Below are positions 2,577-28,017 of a DNA stretch of 64,000 bases, in pieces (position 1 is the first letter of the stretch; each line of letters begins with the position of its first letter). A program made the position numbers and the translations under genes. The stretch spans positions 76,357 to 140,356 of the forward strand of contig DAOUKQ010000029.1 in the NCBI GenBank assembly GCA_034421135.1. Reading direction: 5' to 3'. Origin of the DNA: Dehalococcoidia bacterium (GTDB lineage Bacteria > Chloroflexota > Dehalococcoidia > Bin125). The notes beneath the pieces were generated by a model. The model had not been told where the DNA came from. It saw only the letters and a program-made list of their open reading frames with translations, and searched no databases.

Positions 2577-2863
2577 GCTCACCGATCGTGGTTTGATGCC
2601 GTTCGTCGTTCGTTTGCGACCTGTCTCGTGGACAATCGGTTCCGTCATTGCCTCACTCCGGCGCGGCAATCTCACCTTCGACAAGCGCGGGTATGACGGT
2701 GTGGTGTGTACGTGACCCGCTTCTCCGACTGTGTCCGGCGGCACTGATTCGGCTCTATACAGATCATATGTTCTTGTAGTATTGCTCGCACTCGCTTGCG
2801 TGGCGATGGCGCTGTCGCTGGGCAAGCGTCCGATGCAGTGCAGCAACGAAACAGGGGTGTCCC

Positions 2864-3124
2864 ATGACCGAACACGAAGGAGGCGAACAGATTGAGGTTC
2901 CTCACGGTCCCGCGACTCGTGAGGAGGTGATGGCGGGGATACGCAGGTTGGCCTATGAGGCCAGTTCCGAGACCGTCTGCCTGCGAGCGTGGGAGTTGAT
3001 GGGCAAGGACATCGGCATGTTCAAGGACGCGCCCGGGGAAGGCGGCGCGCCGGTTGTGCGCATGACGCCGTCGCTGGAAGCCGAACCGAGCATCGAAGGG
3101 GCGGACCATGACAACGAGCAGTAG
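2864..3124 (+). CDS. Small hypothetical protein (phage-associated, overlaps terminase start)
   Basis: 86 aa ORF overlapping the terminase start by 17 nt; preceded by an AT-richer promoter-like region; no recognisable domain. Confidence 0.35.
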   Translation: MTEHEGGEQIEVPHGPATREEVMAGIRRLAYEASSETVCLRAWELMGKDIGMFKDAPGEGGAPVVRMTPSLEAEPSIEGADHDNEQ

Positions 3125-4499
3125 CGTCTCCCTTGACCTCCGCGTCTTGCAACCAGGCGACCGCCACTTCAGACCGACCGAGCGCCAGCTCGCTGTCTAT
3201 GAAGCGCTGCGCGGGACGCCGGCGAGTGGTCTCACGCTGGTCGGATACGGCGGCGCGATGGGCGGCGGCAAGACTCGGGCCGTCGCCGAACTGGCGATCG
3301 ATACCGCCCTCTCCTTCCCTGGCACAAACATCCTCGTCGCCAGGCAGCATTACTCCAACCTGCAAACGACGACCATGCGCGAGTTCTTCGATTGCCTGCC
3401 CCAGCGATTGGTCGTGGAACGACATCGGTCGTCGCCGCAGTGGGTGGCGATCCGCGACGCCGCCTGGCCGAGGGGCGAGCGATCCACGATTCACTTCCGC
3501 CACCTGACCGAGTGGTCGGGCTTGGGTTCGGAGCAGTACGGCGCGGTGTTCATCGACGAAGCGGGCGAGGTCGCCGAAGAGGCCGCGCAAATGCTGCTCA
3601 CCCGGCTCCGCCATCCGGCTCAGCCGCAGCGATGGTTTGTCGCTGCGTCGAATCCCTGGCCGGGCTGGTTCGAGCGCTGGTTCACCCGTCGCGAGCTCGA
3701 CGAGGAATCCCTCGCCGCGGCGGGCGGCCGAATCGTCTTCATTCCCGCCAAAGTCGACGACAATCCGCATCTGCCCGCTCACTACGCCGAGCAGCAGCGC
3801 GCGCTGCAGCCGGGCGAGTGGGTCGACCGTTTCATCGACGGCCGCTTCGACGCGTTCGACGGCCAGATCTACCAGCACTTCGACGCGTCGCGGCACTGCT
3901 GGGACGCCCCGCTGCCGCCGTTCGCCCGCTACATCGGTGGTCTCGACTTCGGAGGACAATCGCCGCGCGACCACTACACGGCGGGTGTCGTCGCGGGCAT
4001 CACCGGCGGGAATGCGCCGTGCGGCGCAAACATCCTCATTCGTCTCGGCGAGTTCGAGGATCGCGGCCCCGGCGTCACCGAGCGGCTGGAGCAGTGGCAG
4101 CGATCCTGGCGACATAAGCTGGGTCCGATCCAGTGGTGCGCCGACCGCTCGCAGTCGGCCTGGATCGATCATCAACGCCGCCAGGGACTCAACGTCGTGC
4201 CCAGCAAGGGCGGCCCCGACTCCGTCAATTGGGGCATTTCGCTGGTCCAGCAACGACTCAACGGCGATCCGCCCAGCTCGTACTACGTCCCCGGCATGAC
4301 CCAGTTTCCAACTCGCATTCGCGAGTACCAGTGGGATCGCTCGGCGCACGATCAGTCGCCCAAACCGCGCAAGCGCAACGACGACTTGCTCGACGCCGAC
4401 CGCTATATGCACGAACTCAGCGTCAAGTCGCAGTCGTTCCCTCCGCGAATCATCATCAACCATCCGCCCCGAGGCCAGGATGCCCGCTGGCGGGGATGA
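3108..4499 (+). CDS. Phage terminase large subunit (PBSX/Terminase_6-like ATPase plus nuclease)
   Basis: 463 aa; Walker A GYGGAMGGGKTRA, Walker B VFIDEAGEV, C-terminal RNase-H-like nuclease region (GGLDFGG...); no other phage morphogenesis genes adjacent. Confidence 0.75.
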   Translation: MTTSSSVSLDLRVLQPGDRHFRPTERQLAVYEALRGTPASGLTLVGYGGAMGGGKTRAVAELAIDTALSFPGTNILVARQHYSNLQTTTMREFFDCLPQRLVVERHRSSPQWVAIRDAAWPRGERSTIHFRHLTEWSGLGSEQYGAVFIDEAGEVAEEAAQMLLTRLRHPAQPQRWFVAASNPWPGWFERWFTRRELDEESLAAAGGRIVFIPAKVDDNPHLPAHYAEQQRALQPGEWVDRFIDGRFDAFDGQIYQHFDASRHCWDAPLPPFARYIGGLDFGGQSPRDHYTAGVVAGITGGNAPCGANILIRLGEFEDRGPGVTERLEQWQRSWRHKLGPIQWCADRSQSAWIDHQRRQGLNVVPSKGGPDSVNWGISLVQQRLNGDPPSSYYVPGMTQFPTRIREYQWDRSAHDQSPKPRKRNDDLLDADRYMHELSVKSQSFPPRIIINHPPRGQDARWRG

Positions 4500-11608: not shown

Positions 11609-11634
11609 CTCATCCATTTCAGACAGGCGCCGAC

Positions 11635-13305: not shown

Positions 13306-13431
13306 GGCGGTGGTCCCTCAGAAGCGGCGGTCATCCAGTCTCACTCAGAATCGTAATCTGTTGGCGGGTCTGATCCCTCAACCGACCAGCCTGGATCAGC
13401 ATCTTGATACCCTCACGGGGAGGAGGCTGAC

Positions 13432-13731: not shown

Positions 13732-13733
13732 CG

Positions 13734-13943
13734 GTGCGCGTCCGTACCGCACGGCAGATCAACCGGATTCTTGAACGGCAAGGGTTCGTCCAGGTCAGGC
13801 AACGCGGCAGCCACCGCCGGTACCGGGCCGTCATCAAGGGTATTGAACGAAACGTGACCGTGTCTCAGCATCGTGACATTCCTCCACGAACACTGAAGAC
13901 GATCATCGAACAATCCGGACTCCCGCGAGACCTGTTCGAGTAG
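13734..13943 (+). CDS. hicA: HicA family mRNA interferase toxin
   Basis: 69 aa; conserved GSH(R) motif and C-terminal PRTLKTIIEQSGL characteristic of HicA/YcfA. Confidence 0.75.
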   Translation: MRVRTARQINRILERQGFVQVRQRGSHRRYRAVIKGIERNVTVSQHRDIPPRTLKTIIEQSGLPRDLFE

Positions 13944-13962
13944 CCCGCGTATCCTCCTCTGC

Positions 13963-15150: not shown

Positions 15151-15193
15151 GGACTCACGCATTGCTACGATTTCGGCAACTATTGGAGATGGC

Positions 15194-15841
15194 ATGATCA
15201 CCAGCGCTCCTGCCGACGCACCACCGCTCCCCGGGTTGATCCGCATCGGTTGCGGCCTGAGTGCGATCAGCGACGAAGACCTCGAGCGGATCTGTGACGA
15301 GAACCCAGGTTGGAAGTTCGAGCTCGACGAAGACGGGGAGTTGGTGATCAACGTGTACGCCGGTGATGAGAGTTCGGACGTCGGAGCGGAACTTGGGGGA
15401 CAGCTTCGCAATTGGCGCATCGGCGGCGGCGGTGGACGAGCCCGAGACGCCAGCGCCGGTTACCGCATGACCGACACCGAGGGACGCACGCGGTTGCTGG
15501 AACCGGATGTCTCCTGGGTGAGTCCTGAACGGCTGGCCGCGGCCACACGCGAAGACGTGAAGGGCGCGATGTCGTTCAATCCGGACTTTGTCGTCGAGGT
15601 TCGCTCGCCCAGCGATAGCTTGAGTGATCAACAGACCAAGATGGAAATCTGGATGCACTTCGGCGTGCGCCTCGGCTGGCTCGTCGATCTCGACGCCTGC
15701 AACGTGTGGATCTACCGGCAAGGTCAGGAGCCGCAGCTCCTTGAGCGACCCTCGACGCTGGACGGCGAAGACGTGCTGGTCGGCCTTGAGGTCGACTGCG
15801 CTGAAATCTGGCGTCTGGCCGACGAAGCCAACGCGGACTGA
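15194..15841 (+). CDS. Uma2 family (DUF820) protein, paralog 3
   Basis: 215 aa; PDFVVEVRSPSDSLSDQQTKMEIWMHFGVRLGWLVDLDACNVWIYRQG. Confidence 0.7.
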   Translation: MITSAPADAPPLPGLIRIGCGLSAISDEDLERICDENPGWKFELDEDGELVINVYAGDESSDVGAELGGQLRNWRIGGGGGRARDASAGYRMTDTEGRTRLLEPDVSWVSPERLAAATREDVKGAMSFNPDFVVEVRSPSDSLSDQQTKMEIWMHFGVRLGWLVDLDACNVWIYRQGQEPQLLERPSTLDGEDVLVGLEVDCAEIWRLADEANAD

Positions 15842-15859
15842 ATTGGAGATTGGACAACC

Positions 15860-16675
15860 ATGACCACTGCCATCGTTGAACGAACCATCACCGCCTTCCT
15901 CGACGGTGACGACTCGCTGGAGATCAACAACATCATTCACTCCACGGCGGGCGCGGCGCGCTATGGCTACAGTGGACCGCTGGTCGGCGGCACGACGGTC
16001 TACTCGTGGTCGGTCGCCGCGCTGGTCGAGGCTCTGGGCGACGCCTGGCTGGACGAGGGCTGGGTGGCGTTCCAGTTGCGCAGGCCCGTGTATCCGAATG
16101 AGGTGATCACGACGCGCGTGGAATCAAACGGCGGCGATGTCGCCTTCACCATGACCAAGCACAACGGCGACATCGCCGTCCGGGGAACCGCCGGGCTCGG
16201 CATCGCCGACTTCAACGCCGAGATTTCAGACGCAACCGACCGAACGCCGGTCCCGGAGCCCGAGCATCGTCTCTACATCACCAGGGAACTCGCCCCGCTC
16301 GGCGACGACCTGCCGGCCATGTCGATCGACCTGAGTTCCGGCGAAGCGGAACGGTACGCCGCAGAACTGGCTCGAGATCCCGACCAGCGCTGGTGCGGAG
16401 CGAATGCTCCCGTGCATCCGGGCTGGATCGCCCAGCGAGCGAATGCGCTGCTCGCGCACACCTGGCGCTACACCTCGATCCACGCATCAAGCCAGATTCA
16501 GCACCTGGCGCCCGTCCATGCCGACCAACGGCTGCTCGTCAGCGGCAGGCTCGACTCGGGCTACGAGCGCAAGGGCCACGAGTACGCGATCATCGATCTC
16601 ACGGTGACCTCTGAGGACGGCCGGGACCTGGTGCGGATGCGGCAACCGACGATCTATCAGGTTGGAGCACGCTGA
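15860..16675 (+). CDS. MaoC-like (hotdog fold) dehydratase/hydratase, tandem paralog A
   Basis: 271 aa; HSTAGAARYGYSGPLVGGTTVYSW and a second hotdog half; 40-50% identical to the next gene. Confidence 0.6.
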   Translation: MTTAIVERTITAFLDGDDSLEINNIIHSTAGAARYGYSGPLVGGTTVYSWSVAALVEALGDAWLDEGWVAFQLRRPVYPNEVITTRVESNGGDVAFTMTKHNGDIAVRGTAGLGIADFNAEISDATDRTPVPEPEHRLYITRELAPLGDDLPAMSIDLSSGEAERYAAELARDPDQRWCGANAPVHPGWIAQRANALLAHTWRYTSIHASSQIQHLAPVHADQRLLVSGRLDSGYERKGHEYAIIDLTVTSEDGRDLVRMRQPTIYQVGAR

Positions 16676-16686
16676 CGAGCGGAAGC

Positions 16687-17553
16687 ATGACTACGCCGAC
16701 CATCGAACGCTCGATCACGGCATTCCTCGACGGCGAGGACTCGATCGAGATCGACAACATCATCCACTCGACCGAGGGCGCCGCGAAGTTCGGCTTCACC
16801 GGCGCGCTGGTCGGCGGCGTCACCGTCTACTCCTGGGCCGTACCGGCGTTAATCGAAGCCCTCGGCGAGGAGTGGCTGGACAGCGGCTGGATTGAGTTCC
16901 GCCTGCGCCGTCCCGTCTACCCGGGCGACGAAATCACGACACGCGTGACTCCAACAGCGAATGCCGTCGCTCCCGCGCAGGCGGGAGCCTGGCCGGACGC
17001 CTCCACGTTCGAGTTCTCCATGGCGAAGGAGTCGGGCGAAGTCTGCATCGCCGGGACGGCGGGCCTGGGCGAGGCCGAGTTCTACGCCGACCTGGCAGTG
17101 GCGCAGAATCGGAACGCGGTTCCGCCCGCCGATCCGCCCGCGCTGCTCACGCCCGAGAATCTGCCAATCGGCGAAGACCTGCCGGCGATGTCCGTGCCGA
17201 TGTCGCTCGACGATGCTGCAACCTACGCCGATCAGTTCGCCCGCGACCCGCACCCGCGCTGGCGCGGCGAGGGCGCGCGCTTGCATCCCGGCTGGATCGC
17301 CGGTCGCTGCGTGCGCCTGACCAAGCACACCTACCACTATCCGGCCGGCATCCACGCCGGCAGCCAGATCCAGATGCTCGCCCCTGCGAGAGCCGGCCAA
17401 ACGCTGATCGTTTCCGGCCACGTCACCGACGGCTATCGCCGCAAGCAGCACGAGTACTGCCTCCTGGACGTCACGATCAGCGACGAATCGGGCCGGGACA
17501 TCGCCCGAATCCGCCATCGAACCATCTACCAGGTCGGCGGCGGGGACGACTAG
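16687..17553 (+). CDS. MaoC-like (hotdog fold) dehydratase/hydratase, tandem paralog B
   Basis: 288 aa; HSTEGAAKFGFTGALVGGVTVYSWAVPALIEALGEEWLD, paralog of 15860..16675. Confidence 0.6.
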   Translation: MTTPTIERSITAFLDGEDSIEIDNIIHSTEGAAKFGFTGALVGGVTVYSWAVPALIEALGEEWLDSGWIEFRLRRPVYPGDEITTRVTPTANAVAPAQAGAWPDASTFEFSMAKESGEVCIAGTAGLGEAEFYADLAVAQNRNAVPPADPPALLTPENLPIGEDLPAMSVPMSLDDAATYADQFARDPHPRWRGEGARLHPGWIAGRCVRLTKHTYHYPAGIHAGSQIQMLAPARAGQTLIVSGHVTDGYRRKQHEYCLLDVTISDESGRDIARIRHRTIYQVGGGDD

Positions 17554-18164
17554 CTCATCCAGCGGCGCCAGATGATCAGGGCGATGGCGAAGATCAGGCC
17601 CAGGAAGACGAGGACGTAGAGGAAGATGCGCAGCGTGTCGACGATCGGCTGATGGTAGACGACGCGCACGCTGAGCGGCGGCGAGTAGGTCCAGGTCTCA
17701 CTGCGCACTTGCTCGAGCGTAACCGGATCGTGCGAGGGGAAGCGAGTACTGCCGTAGCGGCGGTTCGGACGGAGGCTCCTGAAGCCCAGGATGATCTCCT
17801 CGTCGCTGAGCCCTCGTTGGGTGATCCGTACCTTGCTGGGCGCGTTGTCGTCGTCGTTCGAGAGCACGATCGGCTCCGAATAAAGCGAACGGGGCCGGTC
17901 GACCAGCGACAGGTCGAGCGGGAACCCCTCGGCTTCGTAGAAGTGCTCGACGCCTTCGTGATCGGTCTCGAGAATGCCCAGTTCGGCTTGCTGATCGCCG
18001 GCGTGGCGCATCGCGATCTGGACCTGGACCGTGCGCGGCGGCTTGTCGACGCCGAACGCCCAGATGCCGAGCGCGATGATCGCTCCAACAACGATGACGA
18101 GGATCCAGCGCTGGAGGCCGAGGTTCGGGAGTGTCACCGGAGTAGCGTATCGAAGGATCTGCAA
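17550..18164 (-). CDS. Hypothetical membrane protein (N- and C-terminal TM helices)
   Basis: 204 aa; TM helix near the N-terminus (WILVIVVGAIIALGIWAF) and at the C-terminus (IFLYVLVFLGLIFAIALII); 4-nt overlap with the MaoC gene end. Confidence 0.45.
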   Translation of the reverse strand: MQILRYATPVTLPNLGLQRWILVIVVGAIIALGIWAFGVDKPPRTVQVQIAMRHAGDQQAELGILETDHEGVEHFYEAEGFPLDLSLVDRPRSLYSEPIVLSNDDDNAPSKVRITQRGLSDEEIILGFRSLRPNRRYGSTRFPSHDPVTLEQVRSETWTYSPPLSVRVVYHQPIVDTLRIFLYVLVFLGLIFAIALIIWRRWMS

Positions 18165-18221: not shown

Positions 18222-19610
18222 ATGACGCGAAGTATCTCCGCTTTCGCCACATGGCGGCGCCACACGTTCGCAGCGCTCAACGATCGTCACTTCCGCGTGC
18301 TCTTCGCAGGCACGATGTTCGCCACCTTCGGCTACATGATGATGATGATGGTCATGGCGATCGTCGCCTATGACCTGTCTGGCAACAACACGGCGGTGGG
18401 GCTGATTGGGAGCGGGGTCGGACTGGCGATGCTGCTGGCCCCGTTTGGCGGCGTGATCGCCGACCGGGTGAATCGCAAGCGGTTGATTGTCCTGGGACAG
18501 GGCGGCGGAGCGGGGATGCTGATCCTGACGGGTCTGCTGCTCGCCTTCGACCTGATGTCGCTGCCCTTGATGTTCGTCTTGATGATGGTGCTGGGCTTCA
18601 CCTTTGTGCTGATGGGACCGGCCCGCAACGCCTTCACCGCCGATCTCGTGGGTCCGCGGCTGATCGGCAATGCGGTGGTGCTGAACCAGTTGGCCCATAC
18701 CTGGGGAGCGCCGTTCTCACCCTTCATTGCGACCTTCGCGATGGATTCGTTCATCGGTTCCGGCGGCACATACATGTTGATGGGCGCGCTAGTCAGCGTC
18801 GGCGTCTTCACGATGGTCATCATGCCGAATCGCGGCAAAGTGGCGAGGCGCGCCGAGACGACCGATGGGCCGATCCGGAGCGTGCTCAGCGACATCGCCG
18901 ACGGAGCCCGCTACGTGTGGCAACGGCCATCGTTGAGGTTGATGCTCGCCGTGTTCGTCAGCGCGGTCGTGATTGGCTTCCTCTTCCGCACGTTGGCGCC
19001 GGCCCTGCTCGAAGAGCACCTGGGCCGCAAGTCGACCGAGATGGGGCCGCTCCTGTTGGTCTATGGACTCGCATCAGCGGCCGTATCGCTCTTTGTCGCC
19101 GGCGCAGCGACCACGCGCTGGGCCTGGCCGGTCGTGCTCATCATGATCGCGGTGATGGGCGTTGGTTACTTCGTGCTTGCACAGGCTCAAAGCTACGGCG
19201 GCGCGATGATCTCCATGGCTCTGCTCGGTCCCGGCATGATGGGACCGGTCATGATCCTCCAGGCGCGGCTGATGATGCACACCGAGTCGGCCTACTACGG
19301 CCGGGTCATGTCATTCACCATGATGTCGTGGGGCGTGCAGATGCTCTGCGGGCTGCCGGCCGGGATTCTCGCGGACATGATTGGCGAGCGGGAGGTGCTC
19401 GCCGGAGCGGGGCTACTCTCGGTCGTCGTTGCGGTGCTGGCGACGCTCGGTTGGCTAGCGATTCGCAAGCACGACCGTCCGCCGTTGCCGGCGATTCCAT
19501 CTCTGGCGGGCGAAACAAATGGCGGAGGCGCAGTGGCCGTACAAGCCATGCCCCCACCGCCAATGCTCCGCTCGGTGGCGCTGATGTCGGGTCAGAAGCT
19601 CGACAACTGA
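18222..19610 (+). CDS. MFS transporter
   Basis: 462 aa, ~12 predicted TM helices, MFS-type loop motifs (GVIADRVNRKRL). Confidence 0.7.
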   Translation: MTRSISAFATWRRHTFAALNDRHFRVLFAGTMFATFGYMMMMMVMAIVAYDLSGNNTAVGLIGSGVGLAMLLAPFGGVIADRVNRKRLIVLGQGGGAGMLILTGLLLAFDLMSLPLMFVLMMVLGFTFVLMGPARNAFTADLVGPRLIGNAVVLNQLAHTWGAPFSPFIATFAMDSFIGSGGTYMLMGALVSVGVFTMVIMPNRGKVARRAETTDGPIRSVLSDIADGARYVWQRPSLRLMLAVFVSAVVIGFLFRTLAPALLEEHLGRKSTEMGPLLLVYGLASAAVSLFVAGAATTRWAWPVVLIMIAVMGVGYFVLAQAQSYGGAMISMALLGPGMMGPVMILQARLMMHTESAYYGRVMSFTMMSWGVQMLCGLPAGILADMIGEREVLAGAGLLSVVVAVLATLGWLAIRKHDRPPLPAIPSLAGETNGGGAVAVQAMPPPPMLRSVALMSGQKLDN

Positions 19611-19703: not shown

Positions 19704-19874
19704 CTTGCGTGTAAACCGACCCGGTCCAGTCCCCGACTTGTTCGGGGACCCGTTCCCGTTCGGCTCTACCGGGTATCTACCAGGTACGAGACGGGGAGCC
19801 GAGCGGGTCCCCGAACAAGTCGGGGACTGGGCGGAGTGCGCCATCGCTTTGAAGCTCGGGTTCACGCGCAGGCC
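19704..19874. repeat. MITE/REP-like palindromic repeat, family A copy 1 (TIR GAGACYTGCGYGTAAACC; core CAGTCCCCGACTTGTTCGGGGACCCG ... CGGGTCCCCGAACAAGTCGGGGACTGG)
   Basis: Same ~170-bp element recurs at 32188-32362, 33533-33706 and (degenerate, inverted) 51690-51870; strong internal inverted repeat. Confidence 0.75.
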
Positions 19875-19891: not shown

Positions 19892-20614
19892 TTACTCCGA
19901 GGTGAAGGCCAGCGCCGGCGGACCGTGCCGATGATCCTCCAGGGCGGAGAGCCGACGTTCGATCGCCTGGAGCCTTGAATCGATATCGCGGATGGACAGC
20001 TCCGCCACGCGAGCGAGCAACGCATCCCAGGGAAAGTCTCGGCCGGGGTCCGACTTCTGCCGCGTCAGTTCGCTGTGGCCGACGTGGTGGCGGCGGTCGA
20101 TGGGGATGCCGTACTTCGCGCAGATGAAGGCCGACCAGGCGGCGACTGTCTCGAACTGACGGCTGCCTGGCTTGAACGTCTCGCCAATCTGGCGGGCGTA
20201 GCCCTCGATCTCGATCGACAACATGCACGCGTTGTAGCTGATGTACTCGTCCCGCCACCAGGCCGGACGCGGGAGGATCAGGTCCTTATTGCGCACGCCC
20301 TGCGCCCAGGCGAAGTCCTCGTCGCGGACCATCTGATAGAGGTCGCCGTCCGAGTCGGCGTAGTAGTTGGTGCTCGCGTTGGCTCGCGGGTCTTCGAACC
20401 AGGCCGGCGTGACCTCGTTGTCGTCCCACGGCTCTTCCGGCGTGTGGTAGCAGATCGCGACGAAGCGGCGTTGCGCCCCCGAGTAAGGACGCGACCCCGC
20501 CGCGTAGTAGTTCGACCGATGCGCCGGACGCCAGATCGTGCGAGCGCCCTCGGGCAATCCCGCGATGCCCGCCAGGTCCGGCGCAGGTTGGTTGGGTGTG
20601 GTTGCGGTGGTCAC
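19892..20614 (-). CDS. N-acetylmuramoyl-L-alanine amidase (Amidase_2/PGRP, T7-lysozyme-like) - phage endolysin
   Basis: 240 aa; zinc-amidase pattern ICYHTPEEP ... SIEIEG ... HHVGHSELTRQKSDPGRDFPW; C-terminal coiled tail. Confidence 0.7.
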   Translation of the reverse strand: MTTATTPNQPAPDLAGIAGLPEGARTIWRPAHRSNYYAAGSRPYSGAQRRFVAICYHTPEEPWDDNEVTPAWFEDPRANASTNYYADSDGDLYQMVRDEDFAWAQGVRNKDLILPRPAWWRDEYISYNACMLSIEIEGYARQIGETFKPGSRQFETVAAWSAFICAKYGIPIDRRHHVGHSELTRQKSDPGRDFPWDALLARVAELSIRDIDSRLQAIERRLSALEDHRHGPPALAFTSE

Positions 20615-20882
20615 TCGGGGTCTCCCGTCCGGTTGTTGCGATCTTCCCGGCTGCGCAGGACGCCGTAGCCGGCAGCCACCGCGACGGCAATCGAGCGCAC
20701 GGCGTCGGACGCGGGAAGCCCGACCAGACCGGTTTCCAACGCGGCCCAGACGCCGATCATGCCAATCGCGATCATCGCCCTGACGCTGCCGCGCGGCAGC
20801 CAGAGCGGGTTGGGATCCGGGCCCGACTCCGGTTCCGGCCGCGCAAACGGACTTGTCTGTCCTGACTGTTCACTCACAATGC
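20611..20882 (-). CDS. Putative holin-like small membrane protein (GTG start)
   Basis: ~90 aa with two TM helices (AMIAIGMIGVWAALETGLVGL; AVRSIAVAVAAGYGVL) immediately upstream of and overlapping the amidase start; the longer Arg-rich 191-aa ORF-track version is rejected. Confidence 0.4.
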
Positions 20883-20908
20883 GTTCCTTTCCGGTTGCGG
20901 CGGCGGAC

Positions 20909-21211
20909 TCAGCCGCCGCGCACGATGAATGCCGAGGCCAGGCCGATCGCGGCCAGCAGCACCGTGCCGCCGCCGAGGGCGACGTAGAGCCGGTCGATGC
21001 GGGCGTCGATCTGGTCGAGTCCGCTCTCGATCCGGCGCAGGTACTGCCAGAGCGCGTCGGTCTGACTCTCGTGTACAGGCTCGGAGCGCGAAGTCGGGCA
21101 GCCGTCCGGCGCCGACTCGTTGACGGCGCCGGACGGCTTCGAGCTTCTTCGCGCGAAGTGTGGAATGGACATGATGCTCCTCTCATTCGGTTGTTGACCC
21201 AGTCCCCGCAT
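20909..21211 (-). CDS. Hypothetical small protein with C-terminal TM anchor (phage lysis-module associated)
   Basis: 100 aa (or 87 aa from MSIPHF); C-terminal TM LYVALGGGTVLLAAIGLASAFIV. Confidence 0.35.
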   Translation of the reverse strand: MRGLGQQPNERSIMSIPHFARRSSKPSGAVNESAPDGCPTSRSEPVHESQTDALWQYLRRIESGLDQIDARIDRLYVALGGGTVLLAAIGLASAFIVRGG

Positions 21212-21229
21212 GACGTGGGGACTGGGTCA
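21195..21229. repeat. Perfect 12-bp-stem hairpin TGACCCAGTCCCC-N9-GGGGACTGGGTCA sharing the CAGTCCCCG motif of repeat family A
   Basis: Seen directly; lies between two minus-strand genes. Confidence 0.6.
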
Positions 21230-21244
21230 GGGATGAGCGCCGCG

Positions 21245-21664
21245 CTAGGCGGGCGCAGCCGGGAACGGGTCCCGTCCCGCCGCCGACTCCCGCCAGCGCT
21301 CGGGGAGTTCGTCCAGCGACTCGGCCTCGCGCCACTCGATGGCGCGGTGCTTGAGGTACTTGACGGCCGGGACGGGCATCCAGCGTTCCTCCTCGCTCAG
21401 TTCGCGGCCCGTCGAGTCGACATCCTCCGGGTTGCGCATGAGGATGTCGTACTCCTGTAGACCCTGGCCTCGGGCCCGGACGAGCTGGTACTCGTGGTGG
21501 CTGAGCAGGATCCGCTGTTCGCGCGGAGCGATCGTCGGCGGACCCTCCGGCTGTCGCTTCTTGGTTCTGGGTGCCATCGGTCGGTTCCTTTCGGTCGTCC
21601 CCGTGGACTCACAGGGGTCCCACAGGGGAAGTGTGGTGGTGGGTAGGTGGTCAGCTCGGACCAA
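21245..21664 (-). CDS. Hypothetical protein (phage module)
   Basis: 139 aa ORF, no recognisable domain; the real start is possibly the internal MAPRTKKRQ. Confidence 0.3.
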   Translation of the reverse strand: MVRADHLPTTTLPLWDPCESTGTTERNRPMAPRTKKRQPEGPPTIAPREQRILLSHHEYQLVRARGQGLQEYDILMRNPEDVDSTGRELSEEERWMPVPAVKYLKHRAIEWREAESLDELPERWRESAAGRDPFPAAPA

Positions 21665-21968
21665 AACCGGCGTTGATCTCGGTTGCCAGCCATGGCTGGG
21701 CCTCGATCGCCAGCGAATCGTGCGGCAGACCTTGCGCCGCCGCCGTTTCCAGCAGCAGACGCTCGGCCTCGCGCAGATCGTGGAAACCGTGACCCAGTAG
21801 CGCGTGATCGCGGCCGAGATACTCCCGGCCGTGACGGTCGCGCCTGGGCGTCTTCAGATACGCCCGCTGCGCTCGGAGGCCGCCTCCCAGACGCGGCGCC
21901 GAGTAGCGCTCGGACCGCGTCTGGGAGAAATCGGCCGGCGACCAGAGGCCGCGTTCGTCAAGCGGCAT
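21651..21968 (-). CDS. Hypothetical protein (phage module)
   Basis: 105 aa ORF between the capsid and downstream genes; no recognisable domain. Confidence 0.3.
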   Translation of the reverse strand: MPLDERGLWSPADFSQTRSERYSAPRLGGGLRAQRAYLKTPRRDRHGREYLGRDHALLGHGFHDLREAERLLLETAAAQGLPHDSLAIEAQPWLATEINAGFGPS

Positions 21969-21970
21969 GG

Positions 21971-22861
21971 CTAGACTCCGTCCGCGGTGATCTGGCAGCC
22001 GTGATGGGAGAATCCGGCAATGCCCGTGTCGTAGTCAGCCATCGAGCGCAAGGTGACGCCGGGCCACTCGGCTTCCTCGAAGATCGACATCTCCCAATCC
22101 ATCGAGCAGGCCCAGACCAGCGCCTCGGTGCCAAACATCGAGCAGATGTAGTCGCCGGCGCCGTCCGGGGCCATGTAGCCGTCGACGAACACCGCCGTGC
22201 CCATCAGCGGAATCTCGGACACGTGGAAACGGCGGATCAGCCGCTCGGAAATCCCCGCCGGGATCCAGTTCGAGTTGCTGCCGACGCCCGACACGCCAAG
22301 GTCCTCAAGCACGTGCTCGGCGACGACCGGCGAGAGCACGGTGACGACGTCGCCGCGCGGCGGGCCGCCCTTGGAGCGCTTGACCGACTGCAGCACGCGG
22401 CGCGCCTCGCGCAGCTTGGCCAGCGTCAGCTTCTTGCCGGTCGCGCCGATGTCGTTGTCGGTGTGCCAGTTGGCGAACTCGCCGGTCAGGTCGGTGTCGA
22501 TGTCCTGGCCCTGCGAGAGCGCCATCTCGTCCGAGACGAGCCGGACCAGGTCCTGTTGCGAGTAGTTGATCGCGCGCACGTGGATGCGCACGTAGATCGC
22601 GCGGAACGTGGGCGAGATCGTGGTGCTCGCCAGGGTGAAGCGCGAGGTGGTCGAGAGCTCGTTGCCCTCGCTCGGCTTCTGCACGGTCGAAACGCTCGAC
22701 ACGCGCGGAATCTGGGCGCTGTTCGAGCCCTTGGGCACAATCAGCTTGCGCGCCAGCGAGAGCATCGGCGCCGACTGCGGCATCTGCGCAATCGTCCGCT
22801 CGACCATCGCCGCGTAGGACGCTGAAATGTTGGTGGAGAGAGTGTCGGCCATGTGGGGCAT
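21971..22861 (-). CDS. Putative phage major capsid protein (HK97-fold-like)
   Basis: 296 aa, size and position directly after a scaffold-like acidic protein; mixed alpha/beta composition; assignment by context and length, not a verified motif. Confidence 0.45.
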   Translation of the reverse strand: MPHMADTLSTNISASYAAMVERTIAQMPQSAPMLSLARKLIVPKGSNSAQIPRVSSVSTVQKPSEGNELSTTSRFTLASTTISPTFRAIYVRIHVRAINYSQQDLVRLVSDEMALSQGQDIDTDLTGEFANWHTDNDIGATGKKLTLAKLREARRVLQSVKRSKGGPPRGDVVTVLSPVVAEHVLEDLGVSGVGSNSNWIPAGISERLIRRFHVSEIPLMGTAVFVDGYMAPDGAGDYICSMFGTEALVWACSMDWEMSIFEEAEWPGVTLRSMADYDTGIAGFSHHGCQITADGV

Positions 22862-22948
22862 TCCTTTCTGTGCGGTCCGTCATTCCCGCGGGCGCGGGAA
22901 TCGACGTGTACAAATGCGTTCGCGCGTGCGGGCGCGTTCGCGTGCGGT

Positions 22949-23392
22949 TCAGGCTTCGGGGTGCGCCGCCAACCAGTTGGCGAACTGAGCCCGGCGCTGC
23001 TGCCGCAGGTCGTGCCCTTCCGCCGAGCGGATGAACTCGGTCCACTCGTTGACCGAACCGGGCTGCGGCGCCGGAGCGCCGCCCTGCAGTCCGGATGTGG
23101 GACGCTGGCGAGCCGAGCGGACTTGAGACTCGAACTCGCGCGTCAACTCGGCGCGGACGGTCTGCTCCCGCTCACGTGCCGCGCGCTCCGCGATCAGATC
23201 GCGCCAGGCGTTGGCGACATCGCCGGGCTGCTCCGACGACGCGAGCCGTTCGCGCTCATCCGGAGAGAGCTCGCCAATCGCCGAGAGCATCGCCTCACGC
23301 AGGGCCGTATCGCCGTCGGCGGGTCGATCGTCCGGCTCCGGCAGATCGCCGGGCGGCGCTTCCATCGTGACCGTGGTCGGTGCTGCATCCAT
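22949..23392 (-). CDS. Putative phage scaffolding / head-assembly protein
   Basis: 147 aa, acidic N-terminus, Arg/Glu-rich predicted coiled-coil (ERAAREREQTVRAELTREFESQVRSARQ); directly upstream of the capsid-like gene. Confidence 0.35.
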   Translation of the reverse strand: MDAAPTTVTMEAPPGDLPEPDDRPADGDTALREAMLSAIGELSPDERERLASSEQPGDVANAWRDLIAERAAREREQTVRAELTREFESQVRSARQRPTSGLQGGAPAPQPGSVNEWTEFIRSAEGHDLRQQRRAQFANWLAAHPEA

Positions 23393-23476
23393 CGCATGCC
23401 TCCAAACAAACTGAGCGCCGACGGCTGGTGTCCGTCCGGCGCTCGGAGGCGCGCATTGGTGTCGACGCGATGTATC

Positions 23477-23490
23477 TGAACATATGTTCG
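23477..23490. promoter_or_regulatory. LexA (Cheo-type SOS box) TGAACATATGTTCG
   Basis: 13/14 match to the Gram-positive/Chloroflexi/Actinobacteria LexA consensus CGAACATATGTTCG (GAAC-N4-GTTC perfect); in the 250-bp divergent intergenic region between the scaffold/capsid/lysis operon (-) and the fused CoA-transferase (+). Confidence 0.6.
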
Positions 23491-23640
23491 TTCCAAGCGC
23501 ATTGCAAGCGCTTCGTTGTGACGCGAGTTACTGTTCGCTACTGCGAACGCAGACCCTCAGCGCGGGCGGATCCGCCCAGCCTCCGCGCCGCATGATCCTC
23601 TCCGACGCCGGTCTGGCGGGTCTTCGCTTATCCTCCGCTC

Positions 23641-26070
23641 ATGCTGACCGAAACCAGAATTCTCGACCTGACCGACGAACCGTTGGCGCTGGGCGCGCGA
23701 CTCCTGGCCGACCTGGGCGCGGAGGTGGTTCGCGTCGAAGACGCCGCGGGCGACCATCTACGCATGAGGGAACCGGCGATTGATGGCCACGCACCTCGCT
23801 GCGAGCGCGGCTGGGCGCACCTGCTCTACAACGCCGGTAAGCGTTCCGTCGCGGTCGACGTCGCCGATCCTCAGACGTGGTCCCGGATCGAATCGCTGTT
23901 GCCGGAGTTCGATGCGCTCCTCGCTCCGCTCGCGCCCCGGGATGTGTCCGACGCGCTGGCCGAGTGGCTCGAACGCGGACGGCGCGGGGAATGGGCGTCT
24001 GAGATTCCGGTCGTCGACGCCGTGTTCCGCTTCGGCGCCGACGAGCCGATGACCGACCTGACCGCGATGGCCGCGGGCGGGCATGTCGTGCTCAACGGTC
24101 ACCCCGAGGACCCGCCGGTCTGGCCAGGCGGCAATCTCTCGCACAAGCAAGGTTCGATCTCAATGGCCGAGGCCGCCATGGCGCTCATCCTGCAACGCCG
24201 ACGAGGCGGAGGGTGCGGGCGTATCACGGTCGGGATGCAGGAGGCGGTCGCCTTCACCACGTTGCAGACCGCCAGCGGCAACTTCTGGACCTGGCACGGC
24301 ATGTCGCCCGACCGTCACATCCCGATCGGCTCCGGCGCCACCTTCCAGGCCGGCGACGGCCATTGGCTCTCGTTCACGATCCATCCGCCGCACTGGTACC
24401 GATTCGTCAACTGGGTCGACGAGGTGCTCGGCCTTGAGCCGGGCGAGTTGCGCGGCGAGCACTGGGACGACGAGTTCTGGCGCGAGCAGCAGCAGGACGA
24501 GATCAGAACGTACATCGACCGGCTCTGCAAGGCGCTCAGCATCGGCGAACTCCACGATCGAGGCCAGGAGCTTGGCCTGCTGGTGCTGCCTATCAACACC
24601 GTCGAGGAGGTCGCCGAGGACCCGCACCTCTGGGCTCGCGGCTACTACCAGGAGACCGAACACCCTCAGCTCAACCGGGCGCTGATCCTCCCACGCCCCG
24701 CCGTCCGCACTCGAGGCGAGCAACCCCAGGCCGTACGAGCTCCACACCTCGGCGAACACAACGACGAAGTCCTCCCAAGCTCCCCCTCCGATCCCCTCTC
24801 CCTGCGGGAGAGGGCTAGGGTGAGGGTCCCCTCCGCCACGCTCTACGACACCCAACCCCCACCCCGACGCCCGCTCGACGGCGTCCGCGTGATGGACTTC
24901 ACCTGGGCAATCGCCGGATCTCTCGGCACTCGGCTGCTTGCCGACCTCGGCGCCGAGGTGATCAAGATCGAGTCCGAATCACGTATCGATCCGATCCGCT
25001 ACCGCGGCGTGCAGCCGCCCGATCACTTCTCGATCAACACCAACGGCACGTTCAACGACTGCGCCGGCGGCAAGAAATCGGTCACGCTCAATCTCAAGAC
25101 CGAAGAGGGCATTGAGGCCGTCCGCCGCCTGGCTGAACAGGCCGACGTGGTCACCTCCAACTACACGCCATACCGGCTCGACCGCTGGGGCATCGGCTAC
25201 GACGACCTGCGCAAGATCAAGGACGACATCATCGTCTGCAACGTCGCTGTGATGGGCATCGAGGGACCGCGAGCCGAATGGCGCTCCTATGGCAACGGCA
25301 TCATTGCGATGTGCGGTCTGGCCCATCGTTCGGGCTTCCCTGGTCGCGCGCCGATCGGTCTGGGCACGTTGCACTCCGACTTCACGGTCCCCTACTACCT
25401 GTCGATGTCGGTCATGGCCGCGCTCGATGAGCGAGAGCGCACCGGCAACGGTCGATACCTCGAAATCGCGCAGTACGAGACCGCCGTGCAACTGCTCGAC
25501 ACCGAGCTGATCGAGGCGCTCAACGGCGCCGGCGAGCGTCCGCGCATGGGTAACCGCTCGCCGTTCATGTCCCCGCACGGCGTCTTTCCCGCCATCGGCG
25601 ACGACCGCTGGGTCGCCATCGCCTGCCGCGACGACGCCGACTGGCGCAACCTGTGCCGCGTCATCGGCCGTGCCGACCTGGCCTCGCGGGACGACCTCTC
25701 AACCGTCGCCGGTCGTAAGGCCAGCGAGGACGAGTTGGAAGCGATCCTTTCAGGGTGGACGCAATCGCAGGACGAGTGGACGTCCTACCGCTTGCTGATC
25801 AACGCCGGCGTTCCAGCCAGTCCGGTCGAGCGTCTTGAGGATTTCTTCGTCGGTCAGGACCCGGCGATGAATGACCACTTCAACCCGGCCGAGTCGCCCG
25901 AGGGCTGCACCTTCCAGATTCAGCAAGAACCGATCCTCTGGGACGGCCATCGCCTACCCGCCGTCCGAGCCCCGATCTGGGGAGAGCACAACGACGACAT
26001 CCTGCGAAACCTCCTCGGCTACTCCGAAGAAGACATGATCCAACTCGCCGCCTCAGGCGCGATTGGCTAA
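23641..26070 (+). CDS. Tandem-fused double CoA-transferase family III (CaiB/BaiF) protein
   Basis: 809 aa; domain 1 starts LDLTDEPLALGARLLADLGAEVVRVE and ends with the canonical C-terminal APHLGEHNDEVLP; domain 2 starts LDGVRVMDFTWAIAGSLGTRLLADLGAEVIKIE and ends APIWGEHNDDIL; the ~30-aa linker (SPSDPLSLRERARVRVPSATLYDTQPPP) is encoded by a family-B repeat (24786-24836). Confidence 0.75.
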   Translation: MLTETRILDLTDEPLALGARLLADLGAEVVRVEDAAGDHLRMREPAIDGHAPRCERGWAHLLYNAGKRSVAVDVADPQTWSRIESLLPEFDALLAPLAPRDVSDALAEWLERGRRGEWASEIPVVDAVFRFGADEPMTDLTAMAAGGHVVLNGHPEDPPVWPGGNLSHKQGSISMAEAAMALILQRRRGGGCGRITVGMQEAVAFTTLQTASGNFWTWHGMSPDRHIPIGSGATFQAGDGHWLSFTIHPPHWYRFVNWVDEVLGLEPGELRGEHWDDEFWREQQQDEIRTYIDRLCKALSIGELHDRGQELGLLVLPINTVEEVAEDPHLWARGYYQETEHPQLNRALILPRPAVRTRGEQPQAVRAPHLGEHNDEVLPSSPSDPLSLRERARVRVPSATLYDTQPPPRRPLDGVRVMDFTWAIAGSLGTRLLADLGAEVIKIESESRIDPIRYRGVQPPDHFSINTNGTFNDCAGGKKSVTLNLKTEEGIEAVRRLAEQADVVTSNYTPYRLDRWGIGYDDLRKIKDDIIVCNVAVMGIEGPRAEWRSYGNGIIAMCGLAHRSGFPGRAPIGLGTLHSDFTVPYYLSMSVMAALDERERTGNGRYLEIAQYETAVQLLDTELIEALNGAGERPRMGNRSPFMSPHGVFPAIGDDRWVAIACRDDADWRNLCRVIGRADLASRDDLSTVAGRKASEDELEAILSGWTQSQDEWTSYRLLINAGVPASPVERLEDFFVGQDPAMNDHFNPAESPEGCTFQIQQEPILWDGHRLPAVRAPIWGEHNDDILRNLLGYSEEDMIQLAASGAIG
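24786..24836. repeat. Family-B REP-like hairpin repeat (CCCTCTCCCTGCGGGAGAGGGCTAGGGTGAGGGTCC) inside the CoA-transferase linker
   Basis: Near-identical motif at 29455-29500; CTCTCCC-N3-GGGAGAG palindrome. Confidence 0.65.
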
Positions 26071-28003: not shown

Positions 28004-28017
28004 CGAACGAGTGTTCC
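28004..28017. promoter_or_regulatory. LexA (Cheo) box CGAACGAGTGTTCC upstream of hicBA
   Basis: Perfect match to CGAACRNRYGTTYC; centred 28 nt upstream of the hicB start codon (27982). Confidence 0.55.

Follow-up and report, generated by a model that had tools for sequence, protein, structure and literature searches.

Within the stretch of DNA analysed here (64 kb; hereafter the window), seven tightly packed genes occupy positions 19892-23392 of the minus strand, flanked on both sides by host metabolic genes, encoding an MFS transporter (18222-19610) and a CoA-transferase (23641-26070). With gene starts refined by homologue lengths and Shine-Dalgarno positions, the products are, in order, a charged, helical protein (g1, 22949-23392, 147 aa), a capsid protein with HK97 fold (g2, 21971-22852, 293 aa), three small proteins (g3, 21651-21968, 105 aa; g4, charged, 21245-21577, 110 aa; g5, 20909-21172, 87 aa), a holin-like protein with two predicted TM segments (g6, 20611-20877, 88 aa) and an N-acetylmuramoyl-L-alanine amidase of the Amidase_2 type (g7, 19892-20614, 240 aa). 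Every element of the run of scaffold-like, capsid, small-protein, holin and endolysin genes described in the original prediction was found; the capsid ORF is present, its earlier length of 296 aa reflecting a start placed 9 nt too early. In agreement with the original prediction, the cassette itself contains no integrase, terminase, portal or tail gene. Comparison of 40 other window ORFs, including most of those of at least 300 aa, with Pfam brought to light no portal, tail or integrase, and neither in the window nor in related loci, up to 10 kb from the cassette, could a portal, protease, tail or neck protein be recognised. The visible phage-derived DNA amounts to head and lysis genes spanning approximately 3.6 kb and, at a separate location, terminase genes spanning approximately 1.7 kb.

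The earlier suggestion of a capsid-like protein was upheld by structure prediction. An AlphaFold2 model of g2 (pLDDT 79.9, pTM 0.75), compared with the PDB using Foldseek, matched phage capsids best (E 3e-12 to 1e-11, TM 0.55-0.67), followed by encapsulin shells (E about 1e-10) and the RcGTA capsid 6tb9 (E 1.6e-10), and on the basis of this model g2 is an HK97-fold major capsid protein. Matches at the sequence level were weak (phrog_267, E 1.2e-4; Phage_capsid_4, E 0.016), and the encapsulin Pfam family gave none. A total of 79 homologues of g2 were found; those with 44-53% identity whose neighbourhoods were examined are located in phage-like contigs, characterised by one-directional gene arrays and proteins of 1900-2460 aa, and these related phages occur in the same sample types as the genomes carrying the cassette. 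The gene order capsid, g3, g4, x93 is common to cassette loci and phage-like contigs: homologues of g3 come after the capsid gene in the latter (E 4e-13 to 9e-10), and g4, which carries a conserved KYLKHRAxEWREA motif, shows a weak match, at E 3e-4 to 2e-3 among 110 ORFs, to a phage family encoded 3' of the g3 homologue. The AlphaFold2 model of g3 was poor (pLDDT 65.6) and returned no fold matches. A 714-aa protein occupies the portal position in a related phage contig, and a homologue of it was detectable nowhere.

The remaining products could be characterised to differing degrees. Located in the position of a scaffolding-protein gene directly 5' of the capsid gene, g1 had been described as a coiled-coil scaffold; a scaffold role is proposed from its position and charged helical composition, whereas homology to the scaffold-position proteins of related phage contigs was undetectable (hhalign probability 0.1). 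Its C-terminus is conserved (RRAQFAxWLAAHPEA in the alignment), and it had no matches in Pfam, PHROGs, NCBIfam or PADLOC. Neither these databases nor the fold search yielded a family or fold assignment for g3 to g6. The predicted tail-anchored membrane protein g5 has an amphipathic helix ahead of a TM segment at its C-terminus (residues 61-87 give hydropathy windows above 1.5), and its last 45 residues are nearly invariant between species. We call g6 holin-like by features only, because a family match is absent: it has two hydrophobic segments (hydropathy above 1.5 in the first only), a charged C-terminus and the conserved sequence PLWLPRGSVRAxIALGxIxVWAxLETG...DAVRSxAxxVAAGYG, and lies directly 5' of the amidase gene, its stop codon overlapping the g7 start. 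The amidase is assigned with confidence (PF01510 at E 6.8e-17, scoring 62.5 bits where the cut-off is 26) and matches twelve PHROG families, ten of which carry a lysis annotation (endolysin or amidase). It has a C-terminal helical tail and no signal peptide, and residues H57, H180 and D189 show no variation across 44 species.

When one genome was scanned per species, 45 loci emerged, and 42 have the whole cassette in the same gene order. About 44 species-level Dehalococcoidia genomes carry the cassette, in most cases flanked by the same CoA-transferase and MFS genes; in one clade capsid identity is only 68-72% and the flanking genes differ. Of 44 species, 43 have an intact capsid gene (it is disrupted in locus L049), g1 is present in 43 species, and g1, g3, g4 and g5 are intact in 42-44. 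Purifying selection acts on all seven genes, with dN/dS values of 0.35 (g1), 0.17 (g2), 0.22 (g3), 0.46 (g4), 0.24 (g5), 0.31 (g6) and 0.22 (g7); the host genes on either side, whose dS is similar to that of the cassette, have values of 0.13 and 0.29. The most constrained gene, g2, is also the most codon-biased: its GC3 of 0.93 is the top value in the window, and among 44 loci the capsid gene ranks first in 28. In both base composition and codon use the cassette is fully host-like, and capsid and amidase distances are correlated (r 0.88). A fixed site together with host-like dS indicates vertical inheritance rather than mobility. MAG names in the clade suggest sponge symbionts.

Upstream of g1 lies a LexA-type (Cheo) palindrome, GAACATATGTTC (23478..23489), an exact match and candidate operator, 84 nt from the g1 start codon, where such a box had been reported at about 85 nt. 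Within a single window the motif is not significant (two GAAC-N4-GTTC sites against 1.0 expected); its weight comes from comparison. With up to one mismatch it occurs in 43 of 45 distinct upstream regions (1.6 expected; maximum of 5 in 200 shuffles), 74-163 nt 5' of g1 in relatives, and in perfect form in 23 of 45 (0.04 expected). It is also kept in the clade with 68-72% capsid identity, in which another gene, co-directional with the cassette, adjoins it upstream; one clade carries a GTAC-N4-GTTC variant. A candidate promoter, TTGCAA-N17-TATGTT (23479..23507, minus strand), was recognised by reading the sequence and by anchored comparison of relatives, with its -35 at 23502-23507 and its -10 at 23479-23484, within the box. 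Matching 8 of 12 consensus positions, it was missed by a strict scan and falls below the consensus threshold, so the assignment is a proposal; the layout TTGnnn-N17-TA(T/C)GTT recurs in loci L001, L013, L031 and L037. Variants of GAAC-N4-GTTC have been reported for LexA of Chloroflexi, as summarised in PMC4951493, which cites Fernandez de Henestrosa 2002 (PMC135389). This reference concerns Chloroflexi in general, and the motif at the lineage's own lexA and recA may differ. In the Cheo-box regulons of Firmicutes, Actinobacteria and Chloroflexi, as covered there (PMC4951493; PMC135389), the operator overlaps the promoter as it does here; their cargo is repair genes, whereas here it is a phage-derived structural and lysis operon. 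We propose that LexA binds this box and that the cassette is SOS-induced.

Between the box and g1 lies a conserved 5' UTR leader element (23387..23458, minus strand; MFE -43.5 kcal/mol, z -3.2), in which GCGCGCCUCC pairs with the ribosome-binding site GGAGGCGC, and an inner stem GAGCGCCG...CGGCGCUC, followed by AGUUUGUUU, is terminator-like. The 18-mer GCGCGCCTCCGAGCGCCG is identical in most species representatives; it has 1-2 substitutions in 7 of 45 cassette loci and no match within three in 2 of 45. Of the 18 pairs in the RNAalifold consensus, one shows compensatory changes, and the structure therefore rests mostly on invariant sequence. A search with a covariance model (R1) gave exactly one match, always immediately 5' of g1, in every one of 29 Dehalococcoidia sources (the window plus 28 loci), and none in the phage-like loci; the element matched no Rfam family.

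The terminase genes lie elsewhere in the window, on the plus strand. The large subunit (terL, 3108..4499, 463 aa) was identified by Terminase_3 (E 2.6e-10) and Terminase_6N (E 2.3e-7), both above cut-off, while a "PBSX family terminase" model scored 56.8 bits, below its cut-off of 105. The Walker A (GGAMGGGKT) and Walker B (DEAGE) motifs do not vary among 14 species, nor do the nuclease motifs GGLDFGG, WCADRSQ and DDLxDADRYMHE; dN/dS is 0.23. An 86-aa ORF (2864..3124) overlaps the terL start in the position of a terminase small subunit, a function suggested by position only; it matched no family in the databases searched, NCBIfam and PADLOC among them, and copies with 47-78% identity lie directly 5' of terL in nine other loci. 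Ahead of both is a LexA-like box with one mismatch, GATCATATGTTC (2762..2782), directly adjoining a -10-like TAGTAT. The equivalent box has at most one mismatch in 5 of 9 and at most two in 8 of 9 loci with the same type of small ORF; in 7 of 12 other loci a box with no more than one mismatch is located 319-458 nt 5' of terL. The earlier observation that the terminase lies 18 kb away holds for the window, where terL is isolated among host genes, but its treatment as a bystander probably does not: in 17 loci no more than 10 kb separates terL from the cassette, and in many relatives the distance is 3-8 kb (3 kb in L031). Because of this proximity and the LexA-like box of its own, terL probably belongs to the same system as the cassette. 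Distances of terL and capsid correlate weakly (r 0.40), and since the terL N-terminal region and the small ORF exist in two types, terL may have a partly separate history.

The explanation that best accounts for the whole, and which we hold to be reasonably probable, is that the cassette derives from the head and lysis modules of a tailed phage. With the same degree of confidence, we suggest that it forms one locus of a multi-locus, LexA-repressed particle system, GTA-like or of the defective-phage kind, with the small-ORF/terL pair as its proposed second locus. We found no description of such a particle system for Chloroflexota in the literature. The head and lysis block would have become fixed in the chromosome of the ancestor of this Dehalococcoidia clade and been maintained by the host since. 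In an undamaged cell, LexA bound to the GAAC-N4-GTTC box overlapping the -10 would block transcription, and the leader hairpin, terminator-like and masking the ribosome-binding site, would damp leaky expression of a lethal operon. DNA damage would lead to LexA self-cleavage and transcription of both the head-lysis operon and the terminase pair; g2 would assemble into procapsids with the help of g1, g3 and g4 (and x93 in one clade) would complete the head, and the terminase would load it with DNA via a portal, which must be encoded elsewhere because it was not found in the sequences examined. Finally, g6, possibly modulated by g5, would give the amidase access to the wall, with lysis and release of particles. 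Particle assembly and lysis are proposed here from gene content, and DNA packaging has the same standing because no portal or tail gene was recognised in the sequence examined (the window and up to 10 kb around related cassettes). This absence weighs against the proposal, as no function is known for a terminase that lacks a portal. A conserved cassette behind a DNA-damage switch nevertheless suggests that these bacteria make and release virus-like particles.

Several other explanations have to be weighed. The best-surviving of them, which we consider unlikely, is that g2 and g1, the latter as scaffold or cargo, form closed encapsulin-like compartments or empty capsids that are released by SOS-induced lysis with no DNA packaged; part of this reading, at the same low probability taken jointly, is that the terminase is either a relic with no connection to the cassette or now serves another purpose. 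Encapsulins resemble the locus in having an HK97-fold shell of about 290 aa, a small partner gene 5' and no portal, and the lack of recognised portal, neck and tail genes in the sequences examined, the Foldseek matches of g2 to their shells, and a g1 that is unrelated to phage scaffold-position proteins and ends in a conserved peptide that could be a targeting signal all point the same way. On the other hand, the nearest sequence relatives of g2 are capsid genes in phage contigs, not encapsulin operons; the encapsulin family match and enzyme-like cargo are absent; and the cassette is associated with retained phage head-module genes (g3, g4, x93), a lysis cassette and a terminase. A terL that keeps its catalytic motifs, purifying selection and a similar operator is hard to explain without packaging.

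We regard as improbable a helper-dependent element that supplies its own heads and lysis and takes portal and tail from an infecting or resident phage, in the manner of satellites and capsid-forming PICIs, or that interferes with phage assembly as an anti-phage device. Capsid-forming PICIs and phage satellites have their own capsid and packaging genes and no tail, a gene set which the cassette and terminase resemble, and potential helpers would be at hand, as related phages occur in the same kinds of samples. Yet satellites are mobile, helper-phage-induced elements with integrase and replication genes and att sites, whereas the cassette has no integrase, replication, excision or att features, is vertically inherited between the same host genes, matches no PADLOC defence family, and is apparently controlled by a host LexA-type box rather than phage-sensing derepression. 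The PICI-like option of the original prediction is thus not sustained.

About equally improbable is a programmed-lysis module, in which selection acts on the SOS-triggered holin-amidase pair while the head genes ride along in the transcript; examples, at the same low probability taken jointly, would be release of DNA or nutrients, or attack on neighbours if the host has no peptidoglycan. The lysis genes are indeed well conserved, with an invariant amidase catalytic triad, and this lineage may or may not have peptidoglycan: many marine Dehalococcoidia are without peptidoglycan synthesis genes (PMC6306507, PMC10284905), and if this lineage is too, g7 cannot be a self-lysis enzyme, which would count against the favoured reading. 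However, the capsid gene, not a lysis gene, is the most constrained and codon-biased of the cassette, and g1, g3, g4 and g5 are likewise selected and intact; as passengers, the head genes would have decayed over a divergence of dS 0.6-1.0.

A decaying, functionless prophage remnant, for which the incomplete gene set and the single disrupted capsid gene (L049) might speak, is very improbable and is contradicted by the synteny of the same seven genes across about 44 species, selection comparable to that on host genes, conserved operator and leader, and host-like composition; the view of the locus as a domesticated head-plus-lysis unit is upheld by its fixed site, intactness and dN/dS of 0.17-0.46.

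The favoured reading, a host-maintained particle system, has parallels. PBSX of Bacillus and VSH-1 of Brachyspira, encoded by clusters of roughly 16-30 kb, are phage-like particles that do not propagate; DNA damage induces them, and they leave the cell through holin-endolysin lysis. Both have complete head and tail gene sets, in contrast to the few kilobases of head, lysis and terminase genes visible here. VSH-1 is encoded at two loci (PMC5026251). RcGTA is likewise multi-locus, with local synteny, purifying selection and a separate endolysin-holin locus, and is connected to the LexA/SOS response (PMC5026251), as is predicted for the cassette. With RcGTA and other alphaproteobacterial GTAs the cassette shares host-kept phage-derived genes under purifying selection, probably at several loci, conserved local synteny, a predicted holin-endolysin pair and an HK97-fold capsid. 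A sequence relationship to RcGTA is absent, so domestication would have taken place independently, in a different phylum. RcGTA has recognised portal, protease and tail genes, none of which was found in the cassette sequences examined, and its layout is the opposite: here the lysis genes are joined to the head genes in one operon and the terminase is split off. Control would also differ, being direct via the promoter LexA box in the proposed system and via CtrA and GafA in RcGTA.

Seven close-packed genes on the minus strand of the window (19892-23392), each preceded by a Shine-Dalgarno sequence, form a cassette that we interpret as a host-maintained head-and-lysis operon under LexA-type control; together with a terminase pair encoded elsewhere, it is probably part of a multi-locus GTA-like or defective-phage particle system, as predicted from its genes. 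Beginning at the upstream end, the cassette encodes a charged, helical protein of 147 aa (g1, 22949-23392), a capsid protein of 293 aa (g2, 21971-22852), a small protein of 105 aa with no assigned role (g3, 21651-21968), a small, charged protein of 110 aa (g4, 21245-21577), an 87-aa protein with a membrane anchor at its C-terminus (g5, 20909-21172), an 88-aa protein with two hydrophobic segments and a charged tail (g6, 20611-20877), and a 240-aa protein with an Amidase_2 domain (g7, 19892-20614; 62.5 bits against a cut-off of 26). The original prediction had described this layout accurately, except for the start of the capsid gene, which is 9 nt downstream of the stated one; its terms "scaffold" for g1 and "holin" for g6 are labels by position and features only. 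Homology of g1 to proteins found at the scaffold position in phages was ruled out (hhalign probability 0.1), and a reading of the cassette as a defence system was discarded, PADLOC returning no match. For g3, homologue searches found close relatives only, and with an AlphaFold2 model of poor quality, no Foldseek match had an E below 0.7. The cassette is flanked by host genes, an MFS transporter and a CoA-transferase of 809 aa, in a window of 62-69% G+C that is rich in family-III CoA-transferases, MaoC dehydratases and MFS transporters, a gene content that helps to place it in Dehalococcoidia (phylum Chloroflexota).

A scan of one genome per prokaryotic species recovered 45 loci, 42 of which are Dehalococcoidia MAGs carrying the whole cassette with its gene order unchanged. 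Many of these MAGs are complete chromosomes of 2.4-3.6 Mb (OZ241962.1, OZ242948.1, OZ242034.1, OZ219765.1 and OY820591.1 are examples of complete chromosomes in the clade), and their names (IRC, RHO, SB, bin125) suggest an origin in sponge metagenomes, the hosts probably being Ircinia, Rhopaloeides and Aplysina. Capsid identity to the window is 84-97% in the larger clade, where nearly all cassettes have the window's CoA-transferase and MFS genes as neighbours on either side. The second clade (68-72% capsid identity) has a different but related neighbourhood, in which AIRS, DAO and two MFS genes are followed by the cassette. Its members also carry an extra 93-aa gene between g4 and g5 (x93), with homologues in the phage-like contigs L009 and L057, and, immediately downstream of the amidase, genes for large secreted proteins (685-1090 aa) with FG-GAP_2 repeats and a common motif, AEEDYLLIEARVVAQRH, which are not present in the window; these additional genes occupy 11586-11867, 13228-15285 and 15336-15632 in locus L003 and 14009-17029 in locus L180. 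A few kilobases further downstream of the cassette, the same clade has an AAA_15/AAA_21 ATPase and DUF4276 gene pair (L003, 19018-20879; L180, 19272-20885), a candidate defence pair unrelated to the cassette.

The AlphaFold2 model of g2, obtained with 38 homologues (pLDDT 79.9, pTM 0.75), matched 361 PDB chains in Foldseek at E <= 0.001. The best matches were HK97-fold capsids of tailed phages (E 3e-12 to 1e-11, probability 1.0, TM 0.55-0.67), with the RcGTA capsid and encapsulins ranking after them at E about 1e-10. Judged by this modelled fold, g2 is an HK97-fold major capsid protein, and the lack of any HK97 or encapsulin fold, which the original prediction had named as a refutation of its reading, was not what we found. 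The likeness to encapsulins carries no encapsulin membership, since it is shared with all HK97 proteins; we rejected such membership, as g2 has no encapsulin Pfam match and its neighbours are phage head-module and lysis genes. In sequence, g2 is highly divergent from what is catalogued: the curated capsid families it matched scored under their cut-offs (Phage_capsid_4, 15.9 bits against 27; Phage_capsid, 15.0 against 24.2; TIGR01554, 15.1 against 27.5), with weak matches to phrog_267 (E 1.2e-4), TIGR01554 (E 0.009) and Phage_capsid_4 (E 0.016). A tblastn search of 50,697 GenBank phage records gave no match, and, in the same hunt for cultured relatives, a scan of IMG/VR yielded two contigs only. 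The third-position G+C content (GC3) of g2 is 0.93, the highest of 61 candidate genes in the window, and in 28 of 44 loci the capsid gene ranks first in GC3 within the cassette. Such a bias would be expected if the gene is translated in large amounts.

Protein searches returned 79 homologues of g2. Those of 44-53% identity whose neighbourhoods were examined lie on phage-genome-like contigs, with long one-directional gene arrays and proteins of 1900-2460 aa, in which Pfam and PHROGs recognise almost nothing ("dark matter"). On these contigs a gene for 255-291 aa occupies the scaffold position, a g3 homologue directly follows the capsid gene (E 4e-13 to 9e-10), and the next gene, a weak match to g4 (E 3e-4), is followed by a homologue of x93. 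From this common gene order, we infer that the cassette consists of an uninterrupted stretch of a phage head module, to which a lysis module is joined.

Within that lysis module, the zinc ligands of g7 (H57, H180 and D189) are invariant in 44 species and no hydrophobic N-terminus was found, so that g7 has the predicted properties of an endolysin: its peptidoglycan hydrolase domain keeps the catalytic residues, and a signal peptide is lacking. The neighbouring g6 is holin-like in size and position, has a charged tail and two hydrophobic segments, one strong and the other weaker, and matches no holin family. Many marine Dehalococcoidia have lost the genes for peptidoglycan synthesis, but Tepidiformales, whose habitats also include sponges, keep them (PMC6306507, PMC10284905). 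The conserved zinc ligands, together with a LysM protein encoded on one of the related phage contigs, would fit a wall-bearing host, though they are no proof of one.

A perfect LexA-type box of the form GAAC-N4-GTTC, GAACATATGTTC (23478-23489), lies 84 nt before the start of g1, where the original prediction had placed a Cheo-type box at about 85 nt. Two such sites in the window, against 1.0 expected, are unremarkable as a count; the second, also perfect (GAACGAGTGTTC, 28005-28016), is situated between two CoA-transferase genes, shortly past the stop codon of one and ~560 nt ahead of the other. Across 45 distinct regions upstream of g1, 23 contain a perfect box (0.04 in shuffled sequences) and 43 contain one with at most one mismatch (1.6 in shuffled sequences), and this conservation in orthologous promoter regions is what would be expected of a LexA (SOS) regulon motif. 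That LexA would bind here is supported by the literature on Dehalococcoides and Chloroflexi, in which variants of GAAC-N4-GTTC are given as the site of Chloroflexi LexA (PMC4951493, which cites Fernandez de Henestrosa 2002). The second clade has GTAC-N4-GTTC in the same place and a different, co-directional MFS gene upstream; the box therefore belongs to the cassette, and a role in regulating the divergent CoA-transferase is unlikely. In the window and near relatives, the box overlaps a -10-like TATGTT located 17 nt from TTGCAA, a predicted promoter that falls under the strict consensus threshold.

Downstream of the box, the leader of g1 (23387-23458) is conserved above the level of coding sequence, and an 18-mer within it, GCGCGCCTCCGAGCGCCG, is unchanged in most species representatives. 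It is predicted to fold into a hairpin (-43.5 kcal/mol, z -3.2) in which CCUCC pairs with the ribosome-binding site GGAGG, and whose inner G+C-rich stem, followed by AGUUUGUUU, resembles an intrinsic terminator. Covariation support is thin (one pair with a compensatory change), as both arms hardly vary. No Rfam family matched. A covariance model found exactly one copy per Dehalococcoidia locus searched, always before g1; neither the window nor any of the 36 loci scanned (750 kb in total) contained a further copy, and the phage-like loci contained none. Such a hairpin would provide a second lock on a lethal operon. An exact scan for the 18-mer in metagenome and viral contigs gave GC-rich chance matches, with the whole element in one of 122 stretches (L074, JGI contig Ga0307372_10140120; 807-872, 52.5 bits), the sole copy found outside Dehalococcoidia cassettes. 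There, the ORF from 867, after the motif, appears to encode a fusion of a ParB-like domain with a DNA methyltransferase (DPPY motif). This copy hints that the leader may be a control element of phage late operons.

The gene for the terminase large subunit (terL, 3108-4499, plus strand) contains Terminase_3 (40.6 bits against a cut-off of 23.2) and Terminase_6N (31.2 against 22) domains, and across 14 species there is no variation in its Walker A and Walker B motifs or in its three nuclease motifs. By these ATPase and RNase-H-like nuclease motifs, its product can be assigned as a terminase large subunit, presumptively an active one, at 21-31% identity to siphovirus and halovirus terminases. A small ORF (2864-3124, plus strand) that overlaps the start of terL occupies the position of a small terminase subunit and has counterparts of 47-78% identity in nine loci. 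The sequence GATCATATGTTC (2762-2773), directly followed by TAGTAT, precedes this ORF by about 100 nt, and equivalent sites with at most 1-2 mismatches are present in most loci with enough upstream sequence. In the window, terL stands alone among host genes 18 kb from the head locus, next to a lipoprotein-like ORF and an ORF that reads by motif as an Ogt-type methyltransferase. The remoteness suggested by the original prediction does not extend to many of its relatives: the two loci are within 10 kb of each other in 17 related loci (3 kb in L031), usually with just three CoA-transferase genes between them. Distances for terL and the capsid are weakly correlated (r 0.40), and the terL locus may exchange with phages, since the N-terminal part of terL and the small ORF come in two types. 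In four loci (L013, L018, L029 and L037), terL has a low-complexity, P/L/G-rich insert of 30-70 residues with repeats such as PLPPLRGEMPTG, which sits between the ATPase and nuclease parts and leaves the catalytic motifs intact.

Neither the scanned ORFs of the window nor the 10-kb flanks of related loci included a recognisable gene for a portal, protease, neck or tail. A Pfam-based hunt for a portal among 40 window ORFs outside the cassette (most ORFs of at least 300 aa included) and the large ORFs of related loci returned host-type genes only. On the phage-like contig L009, a 714-aa protein at the portal position gave no Pfam, PHROG or PDB sequence match, and is unusable as a portal probe because it has no homologue but itself among 5.8 billion proteins. 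An unlikely reading of these null results is that the genomes are truly without portal and tail, and that on DNA damage the cells assemble g1 and g2 into closed, phage-derived shells, complete them with g3 and g4, and burst to set them free. If so, a phage head would have been converted, independently and not long ago in evolutionary terms, into a nanocompartment or tail-less DNA carrier that leaves the cell, and it would still be accompanied by its lysis module and SOS switch; the retained terminase would load DNA by an unknown route or have another role. The catalytically intact terL and its similar operator argue that the particles would package DNA. The proposed multi-locus GTA-like or defective-phage system would work in the same way as RcGTA, PBSX and VSH-1, from which it differs in being unrelated in sequence. 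The 18-kb split between terminase and head loci is compatible with random packaging of host DNA and no transfer of the system's own full gene set, for which it is not in itself evidence.

Dependence on a helper, or a role as an interference element, is quite improbable. The PICI-like option of the original prediction fails on the lack of an integrase, att sites, a replication module and a helper-responsive repressor in the cassette and its flanks and on a position fixed across species. Of the flanking ORFs scanned, none was recognisable as an integrase, most of the ~44 species share the CoA-transferase and MFS flanks, and the loci appear to be inherited vertically at a fixed site, free of integrase, replication and excision functions, as is characteristic of GTAs. 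In pairwise Nei-Gojobori estimates at comparable dS (0.6-1.0, similar to the host flanks), dN/dS was 0.17 for the capsid gene, 0.22 for both g3 and g7, 0.24 for g5, 0.31 for g6, 0.35 for g1 and 0.46 for g4, alongside 0.23 for terL and 0.13 and 0.29 for the flanking CoA-transferase and MFS genes. These values point to host-maintained structural genes of phage origin under purifying selection, another GTA trait. It is very doubtful, with the capsid gene giving the lowest of the cassette values, that the cassette is a lysis module with passenger genes; capsid and amidase distances are correlated (r 0.88), so the operon evolves as a unit. That the cassette might be a dead remnant is barely credible, and the original view that it is not a decaying prophage was borne out, given its preserved order, these dN/dS values and a capsid gene intact in 43 of 44 species. 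The sole representative with a disrupted capsid gene (L049, 10001-10950) retains a match to 55% of the query in a locus ~74 nt longer, and its remaining six cassette genes appear intact.

To our knowledge, GTAs and other domesticated phage particles are known from a handful of lineages only, each of independent origin, and our literature search found none described for Chloroflexota. The candidate system is conserved in more than 40 Dehalococcoidia species, which, if the MAG names are a guide, are abundant and uncultured sponge symbionts. Should DNA-carrying particles be made upon DNA damage, they would offer a route of gene exchange, as well as programmed cell death, in sponge microbiomes. 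The unusually small and split layout, a 3.6-kb head and lysis operon with the terminase elsewhere, makes this a tractable case of which phage parts a host keeps, and it has yielded two regulatory elements, a predicted LexA operator that precedes structural genes and a leader RNA motif that is new and conserved to a very high degree.

Several further features of the window were recorded. A hairpin after the amidase gene (19727-19829) was ruled out as the operon terminator, being one copy of a dispersed palindromic repeat of ~103 bp that recurs at 32232-32334 and 33555-33657, with a partial copy at 51833-51858. The repeat has perfect arms of 26-27 bp (CAGTCCCCGACTTGTTCGGGGACCCG) and is similar to a MITE or REP element; for the copy that follows the amidase gene, the folding energy is -106 kcal/mol in a 196-nt stretch (z -6.6), and miRNA models matched this copy on both strands. 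The absence of the repeat from all 183 other loci retrieved indicates that it is confined to this genome or to near relatives. An ORF for a 204-aa membrane protein with no family match (17550-18164) lies between MaoC and MFS genes and has no counterpart there in the related locus L001. Four paralogous Uma2-family (putative restriction endonuclease-like) genes are located at 5547-6188, 6486-7127, 36717-37406 and 39544-40233, two of them in tandem just downstream of the terminase region. Beside the AIRS/DAO pair, a partial N6_N4 DNA methylase gene and a neighbour of ~270 aa with no family match (9477-11608; 3211-5273 in L180) are present in the window and L180 and absent from L003 and L181, and may represent a variable restriction-modification-like insert.
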